Below are positions 34,835 to 38,366 of a stretch of 62,973 bases of DNA, piece after piece. Made by a program: the position numbers and the translations under genes. Numbering within the stretch: position 1 is the stretch's first letter; each line of letters begins with the position of its first letter. Below the pieces are notes generated by a model that was not told the DNA's origin, did not search any database, and worked only from the letters and a program-made list of their open reading frames with translations. Source of the DNA: Candidatus Micrarchaeota archaeon (lineage in GTDB: Archaea > Micrarchaeota > Micrarchaeia > Micrarchaeales > CABMGC01); assembly GCA_021804105.1 (NCBI GenBank), contig JAJZKP010000003.1, forward strand, positions 1-62,973. Reading direction: 5' to 3'.

Positions 34835-34906
34835 GGGCTCGTGGCTCAGTAGTAGAGCGTTCCGTTCGCAACGGAAAGGTCGCGGGTGCGATCCCCGCCG
34901 AGTCCA
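34835..34906 (+). tRNA. tRNA-Ala (CGC)
   Basis: Acceptor GGGCTCG/CGAGTCC with G3:U70, anticodon arm TTCCG-TT-CGC-AA-CGGAA. Confidence 0.93.
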
Positions 34907-34978
34907 ATTACATTTCCTTCGTGGACGGGTGCAATGGACCCCTGAAAGTTATTAAACATCGAATTGCATTATTATAGC

Positions 34979-35389
34979 ATGAGGAAATCAATAACGCAAG
35001 AAGACTCTTTTGGCTGTGGTGTAGCTTGCGTTGCTTGGATAACCAATAAGAGCTACAAGCGGGCTAAAAAGGAATATTTCAAAGATGCGAATAGTGCCAG
35101 TATTTTTGGTTACTTATGTAGGGATTTAGTAGCAGCATTAGCCAAAGCAAAAAAGCAATATAGTTACAAGTATGTAAAGGGAAGACTAAGGTTTCGTGAC
35201 GGCTATATCATCTTCATAAAAAGATCCAAGCGATATCCAGCAGGGCATTATTTTGTTAAGACAGGAAAGGGCTGGATGGATCCTTGGATAAACTTCGACT
35301 ATAGAAATGCAGAAGTTAATAGGGCGAATTCAGGTTTTCGTAAAAGATTACCAGGTAAACCAATCTACGTAATATCACCGCGTGTATAA
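34979..35389 (+). CDS. Peptidase C39-like cysteine protease domain protein
   Basis: QEDSFGCGVAC...GHYFV...WMDP catalytic pattern. Confidence 0.7.
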   Translation: MRKSITQEDSFGCGVACVAWITNKSYKRAKKEYFKDANSASIFGYLCRDLVAALAKAKKQYSYKYVKGRLRFRDGYIIFIKRSKRYPAGHYFVKTGKGWMDPWINFDYRNAEVNRANSGFRKRLPGKPIYVISPRV

Positions 35390-35391
35390 GA

Positions 35392-35411
35392 TAGATATAT
35401 TTATATATCTA
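35392..35411. promoter_or_regulatory. Palindrome overlapping TATA box of the toxin-antitoxin pair
   Basis: TAGATATAT-TT-ATATATCTA perfect inverted repeat. Confidence 0.45.
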
Positions 35412-35423
35412 ATTAGTATATAG

Positions 35424-35699
35424 ATGACTATGAAACAAATGCAAACACAGATAATGCACTCACCGACATTGGATACGGTATTAATGGTAGAACATACGCT
35501 GCAGGATGCGAAGGAAGTTATCAAGATAGCCGAGCTTAAGCGCAGATTGCCACGCAAGGTAATGCACCAAACATTGATGAAGATACTTGATTATCTTCAG
35601 GAGAGCGGCAAGATACTAATCACAACAAAGGGAGTTGTCTGGACTTACACACCTATAGATATGATGGAAAGACTGAAGAAGAGAGGATTGGAACTATGA
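35424..35699 (+). CDS. Small wHTH protein, probable antitoxin
   Basis: HSPTLDTVLMVE...ILDYLQESGKI; stop overlaps the ATG of the RelE-like gene. Confidence 0.65.
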   Translation: MTMKQMQTQIMHSPTLDTVLMVEHTLQDAKEVIKIAELKRRLPRKVMHQTLMKILDYLQESGKILITTKGVVWTYTPIDMMERLKKRGLEL

Positions 35700-36060
35700 A
35701 ACCTTCAAAGACAATAAGGTAATTCTTCAGAATCAGGCCAGAGAAGAGTATGAAACCCTATCCAGAGTTGTTGAAGAACAGAAGAAGAAACGCAAGACAA
35801 ACTCGGAAGAGATGCAACTTCTCAAATCCATAGACAAGAAAGTTGCATTGTTGAAATATAACCCTGCATATGGACAGAGCATATCCAAAGACCTAATTCC
35901 AAAAACACTGGATGTGGATAACCTTTTCAGAGTCGAATTAACGCATTATTGGAGAATGCTTTACACAATTAGAACAAACGAAGTGGAAATAGTAAGCTTT
36001 GTGCTTTACATTATAGACCATCCTTCTTACAACAAGCTCTTCGGGTATAAAGGCAGGTAG
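35696..36060 (+). pseudogene. RelE/ParE-like toxin with 1-nt frameshift near its start
   Basis: ATG at 35696 is out of frame with the open frame ...KVILQ...NPAYG...NLFRVELTHYWRMLYTI...IIDHPSYNKLFGY. Confidence 0.65.
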
Positions 36061-36136
36061 GCTATATGCAAACGTAGGCACCTGCAAAATACATAGAGCA
36101 TCCAATTACCTAATGTAAAGGCGCAACCATCACTTG

Positions 36137-36196
36137 AAGACTGCCTATCGCCGAGTCTATTTTTGCTTTACGAGGAAGCAGGGTATGAATCCTGTA
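36137..36196 (+). repeat. Cassette junction 1 (tRNA-Ala 3'-end copy plus conserved flank)
   Basis: AAGACTGC-CTAT-CGCCGAGTCTA...TTTACGAGGAAGCAG; 36151-36196 matches 38321-38366 at 38/46 nt. Confidence 0.8.
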
Positions 36197-36210
36197 GCTC
36201 AACTGGTGTC

Positions 36211-36260
36211 TACCCCTACAGTTTGATGAAAATATTAATATTTATAAATGTGTAGGGGTA
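36211..36260. promoter_or_regulatory. 10-bp inverted repeat bracketing the Fic promoter
   Basis: TACCCCTACA-N30-TGTAGGGGTA enclosing TTTATAAA. Confidence 0.6.
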
Positions 36261-36269
36261 AGTATTATT

Positions 36270-37157
36270 ATGGTACGTATAAGAGAAAGAAAGTACGGGA
36301 ATAAAAAGTACTATTATCTCGAACATTCGTTCAGGCTTAATGGCACTGTTATTAAGAAAGAAAAATATCTGGGAAGTAGTATACCTAAAGGCATAGACAG
36401 AATAAAGCGCGATTTTCTTACACGAGTTTATACTCAAAAATGGTATTTGTCGTTGAATAAGATAAAGGCAGCTTATAAAAAGGACATTGATTCTGCAACC
36501 CCTTCTGAAAAAGACAAAGAAATTGAGGGGTTTATGATTAAGTTTACTTATGATACTCAAAAAATAGAGGGGTCAACTCTAACCTTAAAGGAAACTGCCA
36601 ATTTACTACAGCATGGAGTAACGCCTTCAAATAAGCCTTCCAGAGATGTTAAGGAAGCTGAGGCCCATTCAAATATTTTTTATAACATGCTGAAATATAA
36701 AAAAGACTTAACTCTGCAACTAATCTTGGAATGGCATCATTCCCTTTTTGAGAATACAAAAAAAGACATAGCTGGAAAGATACGGACGAGGCAAGTATGG
36801 ATATATGGTAGTAAATTTGTGCCACCGAGTCCAATAGAAGTCATGACATTACTTGATGATTTTTTTAGCTGGTACAATAAAAACAAAATGAAAATGCATC
36901 CTGTTGAGTTAGCTGCGCTTGCGCATTTAAAATTCGTTACAGTACATCCGTTCATAGATGGAAATGGAAGGTTATCACGACTTGTTATGAACTTTATTTT
37001 AAACAAGCTTGGCTATCCGATGCTCAATATATCTTACAAAAATAGAGTAGGCTATTACAATGCTTTAGAAAGGGCACAAGTGAAGAAAATTGATTCGATA
37101 TTTGTACTTTGGTTCTTTAGGAGATATATAAAGGAACACCAAAGATACCTAAAATAG
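36270..37157 (+). CDS. Fic family protein
   Basis: HPFIDGNGRLSR catalytic motif; TQKIEGS inhibitory-helix-like motif. Confidence 0.95.
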   Translation: MVRIRERKYGNKKYYYLEHSFRLNGTVIKKEKYLGSSIPKGIDRIKRDFLTRVYTQKWYLSLNKIKAAYKKDIDSATPSEKDKEIEGFMIKFTYDTQKIEGSTLTLKETANLLQHGVTPSNKPSRDVKEAEAHSNIFYNMLKYKKDLTLQLILEWHHSLFENTKKDIAGKIRTRQVWIYGSKFVPPSPIEVMTLLDDFFSWYNKNKMKMHPVELAALAHLKFVTVHPFIDGNGRLSRLVMNFILNKLGYPMLNISYKNRVGYYNALERAQVKKIDSIFVLWFFRRYIKEHQRYLK

Positions 37158-37166
37158 GATGATTTC

Positions 37167-37425
37167 ATGAAGCACACAGACGAAGTTACAAGAGAAACAT
37201 ATAACAGAATGGTGGGTAGTTGGGCGTCTCGGTTTTTTGATACATCATTAATGAAAAGAGAGAACGCAGTTTGAAAAACTCTGTAAAAATGGATCTTCAA
37301 TACTCGGCGCTGGATGTGGAGCTGGTAGAGATACAGTATGTTTTATTAGCGATGGTTATAACGTAATACGTATAGATTATTAAAAATCTATGTTAAAGGA
37401 GGCTAAGAAAAGAAATAGCTGCATA
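37167..37425 (+). pseudogene. Degraded class I SAM-dependent methyltransferase fragment
   Basis: MKHTDEVTRETYN, then frameshift to SILGAGCGAGRD...VIRIDY*KSMLKEAKKR with an in-frame stop; truncated. Confidence 0.75.
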
Positions 37426-37453
37426 ATAAAAGCACTTAGAAAGGGCCGCACGA

Positions 37454-37476
37454 AAGACTGCGGGACGCCGGGCCCA
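37454..37476 (+). repeat. Cassette junction 2 (divergent tRNA-Ala 3'-end copy)
   Basis: AAGACTGC-GGGA-CGCCGGGCCCA: same 8-mer and spacing as junction 1. Confidence 0.6.
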
Positions 37477-37570
37477 TAAAGTCTATCATACCCCGAGTAT
37501 GACTTACCAATAATAGTTAACGAAGTGTTTGTTGGTGAAGACCCTGTAGCAAGGTTTTAATATGTTTATT

Positions 37571-37587
37571 CACATAATAATTATGTG
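37571..37587. promoter_or_regulatory. Probable antitoxin operator
   Basis: CACATAAT-A-ATTATGTG perfect palindrome just before the ATG at 37593. Confidence 0.6.
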
Positions 37588-37592
37588 GTTAT

Positions 37593-37835
37593 ATGCCCAA
37601 CATAACGTTAGTCATAAGTGAAGAGCTTAGAAGAGATATGGAAAAACACCCATCGATTAAATGGTCGAGCGCCGTAAGAAACATAATAGAGCAGAAGCTT
37701 GCCGATTTCAAAGAGTTGGAAAAACTAGCGGAAAAGAGCAAGTTTACCATGAAGGACTGGAAGCTTATAGAAAAGAAGGTATCGAAGAGCATGGCAAAGC
37801 ATGCAAAGGCGCTTCTCGATGAGAGTAACAGTTGA
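37593..37835 (+). CDS. Ribbon-helix-helix antitoxin (VapB-like)
   Basis: MPNITLVISEELRRDM...IKWSSAVR; overlaps the PIN gene. Confidence 0.8.
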   Translation: MPNITLVISEELRRDMEKHPSIKWSSAVRNIIEQKLADFKELEKLAEKSKFTMKDWKLIEKKVSKSMAKHAKALLDESNS

Positions 37836-38229
37836 TGCGAATATCCTGTTTGCCTGCCTGATAAAGGATTCGACTACCAGGCGCCTAGTTCTCAACCCTA
37901 CACTTACACTTTTTGCCCCAGGATTTCTCAAGGATGAACTGGCAGCCCATATCATAGAAATCAAGGAAAAGTCAGGGATGAATGACGAGGAGCTATTACG
38001 CATGATTCAGAAAGTATTTGCTCAGGTAACATTTGTGCCAGACAAAGACCTTAAACCCTTCTTACATGCTGCTGCTAGCCTAATTGCAGACCAAAAAGAT
38101 TGGCTCTATCTTGCATGCGCATTGAATGAGGATACTGTAATATGGAGCAATGATAATGATTTTGGTCCGCAGAAGAGAATTAGAGTTCTTAAGACAAAAG
38201 AGCTTATGTCGATTGTTGGCTCGCTGTAA
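37819..38229 (+). CDS. PIN-domain toxin (VapC-like)
   Basis: VDANILF, DQKDWLYLACAL, IWSNDNDF. Confidence 0.9.
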   Translation: MRVTVDANILFACLIKDSTTRRLVLNPTLTLFAPGFLKDELAAHIIEIKEKSGMNDEELLRMIQKVFAQVTFVPDKDLKPFLHAAASLIADQKDWLYLACALNEDTVIWSNDNDFGPQKRIRVLKTKELMSIVGSL

Positions 38230-38306
38230 ATAATTAGACATACTGCACAAACGATAGTAAACAATATCGAACACTACTATCTAACATTCTTTGTAAATAA
38301 TACTCG

Positions 38307-38366
38307 TTTGCTGTCGTCCTCCGAGTCCATTTTACGTTTACGAGGAAGCAGTGCATAAATCCCGTA
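38307..38366 (+). repeat. Cassette junction 3 (tRNA-Ala 3'-end copy plus conserved flank)
   Basis: CCGAGTCCA is identical to the last 9 nt of tRNA-Ala, followed by TTTACGAGGAAGCAG...AATCCCGTA. Confidence 0.8.

Follow-up and report, generated by a model that had tools for sequence, protein, structure and literature searches.

Integrase-less cassettes stacked behind a tRNA-Ala gene in a Micrarchaeota genome and their possible mobilisation in trans

The tRNA-Ala(CGC) gene of a Candidatus Micrarchaeota archaeon was examined together with the DNA that follows it on contig JAJZKP010000003.1 of assembly GCA_021804105.1; the whole stretch analysed, positions 1 to 62,973 of the forward strand, is referred to as the window. 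It is contig C16 of an 805-kb assembly that is 75% complete (numbers beginning with G, C, L and X denote genomes, contigs, loci and sequencing runs). An Rfam search of the region returned this tRNA as its sole match, and behind it lie three units of 1253, 1317 and 853 bp, each of which ends in an 11-bp copy of the tRNA 3' end, the core, and a conserved arm (Table 1). The units have a guanine plus cytosine (GC) content of 0.35-0.40, against 0.48 genome-wide, and this low-GC DNA is bounded by direct repeats of the tRNA 3' end, as in the islands of tRNA-targeted tyrosine integrases. A first-pass annotation, made from the letters of the window, had reported near-copies of the tRNA end at 36149, 37466 and 38319 (junctions J1, J2 and J3), and these were read as it gave them, all three in intergenic DNA. 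The 8-mer that it placed 4 nt before the core at J1 and J2 is present, as is the likeness downstream of J1 and J3, which is 83% over 46 nt (38/46). Contigs from Logan bridge J2 without mismatch (runs X2 and X4) and J3 either without mismatch (X1) or with one difference (X5), and no contig bridging J1 was among the Logan matches listed. Five runs from two mine-drainage studies contain 67-83% of the sequence words of the region, and no RNA run was among the runs listed. The three-unit array behind the tRNA is confirmed as real.

The earlier calls of Fic, VapBC and a methyltransferase fragment stand; that of a C39 peptidase is weak, and the RelE-like gene proved to be frameshifted, being one base short near 35718 where the proteins of relatives have 120-121 aa, with a weak ParE-like match (E 0.014). 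PADLOC returned Fic-type matches plus one weak VapB match and nothing else, and the methyltransferase remnant gave only one 25-bp DNA match across 247 genomes. The view that cargo carries its own promoters and operators is borne out by the predicted Fic one, which is conserved in nine genomes. All cargo is co-oriented in the window, as had been noted, but some relatives carry it on the reverse strand (L040, L048, L049 and L062). Such units in relatives also hold AlkZ, RibD, GNAT, radical SAM, PfkB, OmdA and ArsR genes. Distant homologues of Fic (56-66% identity, e.g. in Methanoperedens) have no arms and no tRNA-Ala nearby. Further copies of the unit 1 antitoxin lie outside any cassette with arms, on C33 (C33:9145-9462, 82% identical) and on C14 of the same genome, so that this module also moves by other routes.

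Table 1. Features of the tRNA-Ala(CGC) array, in order along the window
Feature	Position	Strand	Remarks
tRNA-Ala(CGC)	34835..34906	+	integration target; attachment (att) core is the last 11 bases, 34896-34906
Left arm B of unit 1	34907..34946	+	profile E 2e-14; same class as left arm of the G007 (L052) autonomous element with a 399-aa integrase
C39-like peptidase gene	34979..35389	+	weak in Pfam (E 0.083); 0.98 to C39-bearing Atlas clusters
Putative antitoxin, 91 aa	35424..35699	+	overlaps toxin start; no named family; role suggested by context
RelE/ParE-like toxin gene	35696..36060	+	frameshifted near 35718; remaining open reading frame (ORF) 35812-36060
Right arm R2	36092..36148	+	profile E 3e-8; stands where R1 closes the cassette of unit 1 in G111 and G101 (fusion)
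Junction core J1	36149..36159	+	one change, tRNA nt 72
Left arm A of unit 2	36160..36193	+	core plus arm 36/40 identical to left end of the G104 autonomous element
Predicted Fic promoter/operator	36211..36260	+	inverted repeat around TATA-like box; 84% mean identity in 9 genomes
Fic gene, 295 aa	36270..37157	+	PF02661, E 1e-22
Broken S-adenosylmethionine (SAM) methyltransferase fragment	37167..37410	+	E 2e-4; absent from the Fic cassette elsewhere
Right arm R1, diverged	37417..37465	+	short stem-loop, inward-facing TATA-like box
Junction core J2	37466..37476	+	two changes, tRNA nt 68 and 70
Left arm E of unit 3	37477..37516	+	profile E 7e-10
VapB-type antitoxin	37593..37835	+	E 7e-6
VapC (PIN) toxin	37819..38229	+	PIN_2, E 8e-24
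Right arm R3	38270..38318	+	30 nt of arm plus core 32/40 identical to right end of the G104 autonomous element
Junction core J3	38319..38329	+	one change, tRNA nt 64
Orphan left arm A	38330..38366	+	profile E 1e-7; read as remnant of an older fourth unit

By itself the 11-bp core is weak evidence, because with at most one mismatch it occurs at 21 sites in the 805-kb assembly, one of them within the Fic ORF (36823), and with two mismatches, as in the J2 core, at 160. The arms, the 30-50 bases beside each core, are not chance. Junctions were sorted into left arms A, B and E and right arms R1, R2 and R3; ten false-positive loci and one false junction were removed by eye before arm profiling and folding, and the profiles were built from the junctions of relatives with those of the window excluded. 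The junctions are taken as real because these held-out profiles match this array alone in the genome (E 3e-7 to 2e-14), A twice and B, E, R2 and R3 once each. The R1 profile did not recover the diverged R1 arm at J2. Arms of the R1 class have a conserved TATA-like box, apparently facing inward, and in the window both core changes of J2 are mirrored at the 5' end of the R1 arm (37417-37476), with the inverted repeat kept. The A junction was found in 20 of 177 other genomes of the order and in 0 of 223 elsewhere in the phylum, with no match for a reversed control. Seventeen of its 24 sites stand behind the T-arm of a tRNA and the other seven behind another arm or a degenerate T-arm, three of these seven having no tRNA in the fetched DNA; a motif scattered independently of tRNAs, which would have spoken against the first-pass annotation, was thus not seen. 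An integrase follows at only one of the 24.

Whole units recur in other genomes. In comparisons with 60 relatives and then with 247 other genomes of the order, the strongest matches in relatives begin or end at the junctions of the array. Over about 1.19 kb unit 1 is 90% identical in G111 and 87% in G101, which belong to another family. Eight genomes match the Fic unit at 78-86%, from its core to roughly the stop codon of Fic. Unit 3 is 93% and 92% identical from core to core in G073 and G077; in G239, G152 and G038, of the other family, the match covers most of the unit at 87-92%. The CCA enzyme, the product of a neighbouring core gene, has a protein identity of 59% within the genus, 47-50% across genera and 34% across families (five genomes), and 19-34% of its fourfold-degenerate sites are identical (11 genomes, saturated), versus 51-97% for cassette genes (24 comparisons). 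The first place behind the tRNA is taken by unit 1 in G101 and G003, by Fic in G022, G064 and G073, and by VapBC in G038; the second place is taken by unit 1 in G111, by Fic in G009 and by VapBC in G077. In G016 and G189 Fic follows a long duplication, and the neighbours of Fic vary among genomes. The tRNA-Ala genes used across loci are CGC, TGC and GGC, and G010 is 96% identical over 606 bp through the tRNA, yet has a split integrase at the site. Cassettes are therefore gained, lost and reordered singly among relatives, and the proposal of serial insertion at the tRNA-Ala 3' end, by units without a recombinase, was upheld; no recombinase or integrase fragment was detected within the array. 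A 2.5-kb contig in a bacterial bin (L309) carries tRNA-Ala, arm A, Fic and arm R3, and is probably a misbinned Micrarchaeota contig.

The left arm is read as constrained because, in nine integrase-less Fic cassettes, mean identity is 79% in the A arm versus 43% in the adjoining spacer, with 84% in the operator beyond. Despite this drift the length of the spacer is nearly constant, and eight of the nine have the same join of arm to promoter and the same spacer length. This pattern indicates one origin, long persistence and selection on an arm that no integrase gene adjoins. Left and right arms are also matched, as A-R3 or B-R1, in 14 of 17 classified units (Fisher p 0.035, post hoc). Apart from R1 (mean z -1.7, n=12), no arm class gave a folding signal, the mean z of A, B, E, R2 and R3 ranging from -0.7 to +0.3. 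The hairpin described in the first-pass annotation is present at J3 (z -1.9) but is not conserved in other A arms (mean z -0.25, n=17). An R1 arm as the N-terminal piece of a split integrase was considered, and dropped after the reading frame was inspected by eye. Among 36 downstream cores at 25 loci, mismatches to the host tRNA number 35 at nt 61, 23 at nt 62 and 3 at nt 63, so that identity starts sharply at nt 63. Six of these cores differ at nt 66, and in two of the six the paired base of the tRNA is demonstrably retained. This suggests that crossing over takes place in the last 7 tRNA bases, 3' of nt 66.

A census of 85 tRNA-Ala loci with at least 1.5 kb of flank, from 65 genomes, found a right arm at 27 and two or more at six. 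Thirty-one of the 34 units that close in a classified right arm have no integrase and measure 141-2008 bp, the other three having one, and 18 of 21 first-position loci with an A, B or E arm are likewise without integrase. The array of the window is not a pristine example. Elsewhere unit 1 closes in R1, and here it switches to R2 after about 36091; the Fic unit elsewhere closes in R3 at about 1.09 kb (four genomes), and here Fic is followed by the broken methyltransferase and then by the diverged R1. Judged against these relatives, units 1 and 2 are fusions of two cassettes (chimeras) and not the minimal cassettes first described, so at least five or six insertions would have built the array. 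The core changes of J1 and J2 lie in the predicted overlap, and the array is probably mostly immobile now.

Relatives of the source genome encode a candidate helper, a family of tyrosine integrases some 400 aa long that end in a C-terminal zinc ribbon and whose catalytic residues can be recognised in the sequence. Members are present in 54 of 201 genomes from the order and in 69 of 251 from the phylum. Nearly all of the long integrases examined (41/42) adjoin a tRNA, within 1 kb behind it, and the attR of their elements is 12-13 bp wherever one was found. They score 86-112 bits on XerA_Arch (cut-off 220) and were assigned to no named family; among solved structures, archaeal Xer proteins come nearest. 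Three autonomous elements at tRNA-Ala are fully delimited: an 8.8-kb element in G104 (locus L249) that runs from tRNA-Ala and arm A through a 394-aa integrase to R3 and a core, one of 1.98 kb in G033 (A to an R3-like arm) and one of 4.6 kb in G007 (B to R1). An A, B or E cassette stands behind none of the three. The match of J1 and of the J3 right arm to the G104 ends (36/40 and 32/40) thus points to the cassettes being shells of long-integrase elements. The first-pass annotation had held that its idea would fail if the modules proved to be eroded ends of such elements; the shared arms do argue for this descent, but the units persist and spread as units and are not one-off remnants. The integrase search that it proposed returned two tyrosine recombinases from the source genome (PF00589 matches), both split-type and at other tRNAs. 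Serine recombinases gave 0 matches in this 75% complete assembly.

The reading that we favour, with a probability of about 0.55, is that these are non-autonomous integrative mini-cassettes moved in trans by the helper integrase of autonomous elements that share their arms. Each cassette would consist of one to three cargo genes flanked by two recombination arms, and would reside at a tRNA-Ala 3' end. It would have arisen once, when an autonomous element lost its integrase and kept attL and attR. Whenever the cell also contained a helper with matching arms (A/R3 or B/R1), its integrase would join right arm, core and left arm into a circle, which would reach another cell by some vehicle and enter the 3' end of the tRNA, probably crossing over in the last 7 bases, so that the tRNA is restored and older units are pushed outward. 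Toxin-antitoxin and Fic cargo would favour retention; deletions could later fuse neighbours and swap cargo between arm shells, while core mutations would immobilise old units. Action in trans, which the first-pass annotation had also proposed, is inferred here and is preferred because the left arm is constrained, the arm pairs are matched and no helper-cassette tandem is seen at the three delimited helpers; a plausible enzyme exists in relatives, though none was found in the source genome. It seems an even chance that this amounts to an order-wide, tRNA-anchored exchange, in which integrase-free circles of 0.1-2 kb with matched arms are mobilised in trans by rare passing tyrosine-integrase elements, outnumber them by about 10:1, swap cargo and cross families.

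Several points weigh against mobilisation in trans. The helper integrase was not found in the 75% complete source genome, nor in four carriers that are 92-94% complete (G009, G022, G064 and G073), and the integrases that target tRNA-Ala do not form one clade in a quick tree with 20 of 42 inner branches open. Neither a circle nor an empty site was seen; one X4 contig (depth 5.4) joins position 37105, in the 3' end of Fic, back to 34895, and a swapped order fits this as well as a circle does. IMG/VR gave no match for the A-junction pattern, the helper integrase, Fic or the R1 pattern, and hence no vehicle, while a scan of JGI metagenomes gave 58 matches that were put down to chance, none having a tRNA arm or right arm upstream on inspection. 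No feature is present at 31 of the 85 tRNA-Ala loci, and the census tallies are enriched, as loci beyond G060 were picked by similarity and arm profiles were trained on the same loci. The baseline for transfer is one core gene, the CCA enzyme, though the gap is wide. The toxin-antitoxin module of the unit 1 type also occurs away from arrays, VapBC with arm E stands behind an R1 arm in five genomes, the source genome included, which hints at transfer of blocks, and hitch-hiking in cis followed by excision of the helper would likewise yield first-position cassettes.

This last route, mobilisation in cis, would have a helper integrate in front of a cassette, with which it would be excised and transferred in a single circle before leaving at a later time. 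It has been demonstrated in streptococci for cis-mobilisable elements (CIMEs; PMC7563491, PMC5704250), needs a right arm only, explains both the absence of helpers and the first-position cassettes, and fits the repeated adjacency of R1 and E-VapBC. It is nevertheless unlikely, although it deserves to be taken seriously: it leaves the constraint on the left arm without a reason, a classified cassette lies behind none of the three delimited autonomous elements (a small number), the neighbours of the Fic unit differ between genomes, and CIMEs are described as always the most distal element, whereas 18 of 21 first-position units with arms are without integrase here. Another possibility is that large integrase-bearing islands decayed independently and that their cargo was shared by ordinary homologous exchange. 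The array is visibly decaying, and a review (PMC8371274) reads archaeal elements without an integrase as the result of integrase loss after integration. However, independent decay fits poorly with the shared join and spacer length of the Fic cassettes, with units that are 92-93% identical from core to core across genera, and with the choice among CGC, TGC and GGC tRNA genes from locus to locus, and it is considered improbable.

Movement by another enzyme, whether a split integrase that targets tRNA-Ala, like that of Sulfolobus spindle-shaped viruses (SSV), or a host Xer-type or serine recombinase, is more doubtful still. Split integrases lie behind tRNA-Ala at 6 of the 85 loci, the source genome has its two at other tRNAs, and one such element (L043) ends in a 13-bp duplication; the att duplications of split integrases are, however, mostly 22-77 bp with different arms, the A, B, R1 and R3 arms belong to long-integrase elements, and no serine recombinase was found in the incomplete source genome. 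The attC sites of integrons have a GTTRRRY core, an inverse core and a conserved hairpin. An integron-like system proper, in which an IntI-type enzyme acts on single-stranded hairpin sites, the mechanism that the integron-like label of the first-pass annotation suggests, is hardly credible: the units are small, rich in toxin-antitoxin genes and reordered, and R1 has its modest hairpin, but the motif check found GTTRRRY at no junction, folding gave no conserved hairpin, the two PF00589 matches of the source genome and the helper candidates score 21-48 bits on the integron integrase model TIGR02249 (cut-off 265), and cargo has its own promoters and either orientation instead of being promoterless and co-oriented.

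Further observations concern the neighbourhood and other elements. Between 38424 and 43658 the window encodes a Na+/H+ exchanger, DUF5320, PadR, DUF1059, MFS and methyltransferase genes, which recur in varying sets behind tRNA-Ala(CGC) in G023, G009, G036 and G038, also adjoin a cassette array in G128, and are often more conserved (to 83%) than the CCA enzyme; they may represent an older layer of the same hotspot. Very small, microCIME-like units lie between cores at L289 (G100, 188 bp), L238 (G101, 141 bp) and L084 (G011, 41 bp). On C14 of the source genome a 1768-bp element with a 64-bp att occupies a tRNA-Glu gene (L021:553-2396). It contains nothing but a split integrase, 325 aa long when read through the joined ends, and a toxin-antitoxin pair akin to that of unit 1, and is SSV-type in having its att within the integrase gene and a long tRNA duplication. 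The second split-type integrase, on C23 (L022:1165-2759), stands behind an intron-containing tRNA, is followed by a small gene pair that is HicA/HicB-like by eye, and has no attR that could be seen there. Integrase-less units of 0.8-1.8 kb closed by tRNA duplications of 22-51 bp (L030, L036, L067, L078, L079 and L101) carry VapBC, Fic, AbiE, ATPase or NUDIX genes, and the split-integrase family seems to have satellites of its own. The 4.6-kb element of G007 (L052:2374-4523) has a reverse transcriptase in two ORFs and a 214-aa gene with a 100-bp repeat nearby; a split-integrase element from another genome (L043, G006) carries the region of this gene at 91% identity. The arrangement resembles a diversity-generating retroelement carried by a very small integrative element. 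A strong hairpin termed class C (mean z -3.6, n=15; e.g. L249:8870-8911, L038, L101) lies directly behind tRNA-Ala or closes arrays. It was considered as an empty site, which was dropped since 7 of 17 class C sites run into an SSV-type left end; it is nearly the same as the intron of the tRNA-Ala(TGC) of a relative (L095:1088-1201), and a link between mobile elements and the gain of tRNA introns is possible.

DPANN archaea have tiny genomes, and their routes of gene gain are little known. Archaeal islands that lack an integrase are usually read as dead, whereas near-identical units here cross families with their ends intact. If the trans reading is true, the cassettes would be a non-autonomous counterpart of archaeal integrative elements and a compact site-specific delivery system, and would offer a way by which toxin-antitoxin, Fic and stress genes could pass between acid-mine symbionts. 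A candidate enzyme, arms of about 40 bp and an 11-bp core make the question of trans action directly testable.

A literature search with few subscription papers in its reach found no description of such cassettes in Micrarchaeota, though supplements might name some small elements without an integrase. CIMEs (1.2-13 kb; microCIMEs 130-220 bp) are described as decayed, always distal as a rule from S. salivarius, and mobile only in cis with a conjugative element (PMC7563491, PMC5704250). The cassettes resemble them in lacking an integrase, keeping attL and attR, carrying cargo, stacking in tandem at the 3' end of a gene and overlapping in size (here 141-2008 bp), and in sharing ends with autonomous elements at the same target (G104, G033 and G007), from which they probably descend by deletion. 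Unlike CIMEs, they are often first behind the tRNA (18/21 in an enriched sample), outnumber helpers by about 10:1, show constraint on the left arm, are archaeal and have crossed between genera and families; no link to conjugation is known here, conjugation genes not having been searched for. Classical archaeal elements with short att sites, namely the SNJ2 type (14-bp att at the tRNA 3' end, PMC5861418; placed in Halobacteria alone by the review PMC8371274) and the cryptic integrated elements of Thaumarchaeota (PMC6563490), share with this system an intact integrase beside the tRNA, a short core from the acceptor end and tandem integration. They carry their own integrase, which the array does not, and the smallest tyrosine-integrase element cited in the available text of this group (PMC5861418, PMC6563490, PMC8371274) is 2.6 kb.

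SSV-type elements (PMC8371274) use the same tRNA-Ala site in relatives and have integrase-less derivatives of their own, but have the att inside the integrase gene, longer duplications and other arms; none was detected in the array, where att duplications are 11-12 bp. The tycheposons and tRNA islands of Prochlorococcus (bioRxiv 10.1101/2020.12.28.424599) likewise push older elements outward by serial tRNA integration and leave partial tRNA copies between them, yet are larger and have their own integrase, and integrase-less mobile units are not described in the available part of that preprint. Integrons and clusters of attC sites lacking integrases (CALINs), archaeal ones included (bioRxiv 10.1101/2022.02.06.479319), are also small, toxin-antitoxin-rich, reorderable cassettes gained and lost one by one, often without an adjacent integrase, whereas here there is no attC, attI or IntI and the anchor is a tRNA; the main text of the archaeal preprint mentions Micrarchaeota, DPANN and tRNA 0 times. 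By these comparisons the array appears to work like CIME accretion combined with tandem tRNA islands and to resemble an integron in outcome only, and the exchange, if true, would be a functional analogue of integron arrays built on att-site chemistry.

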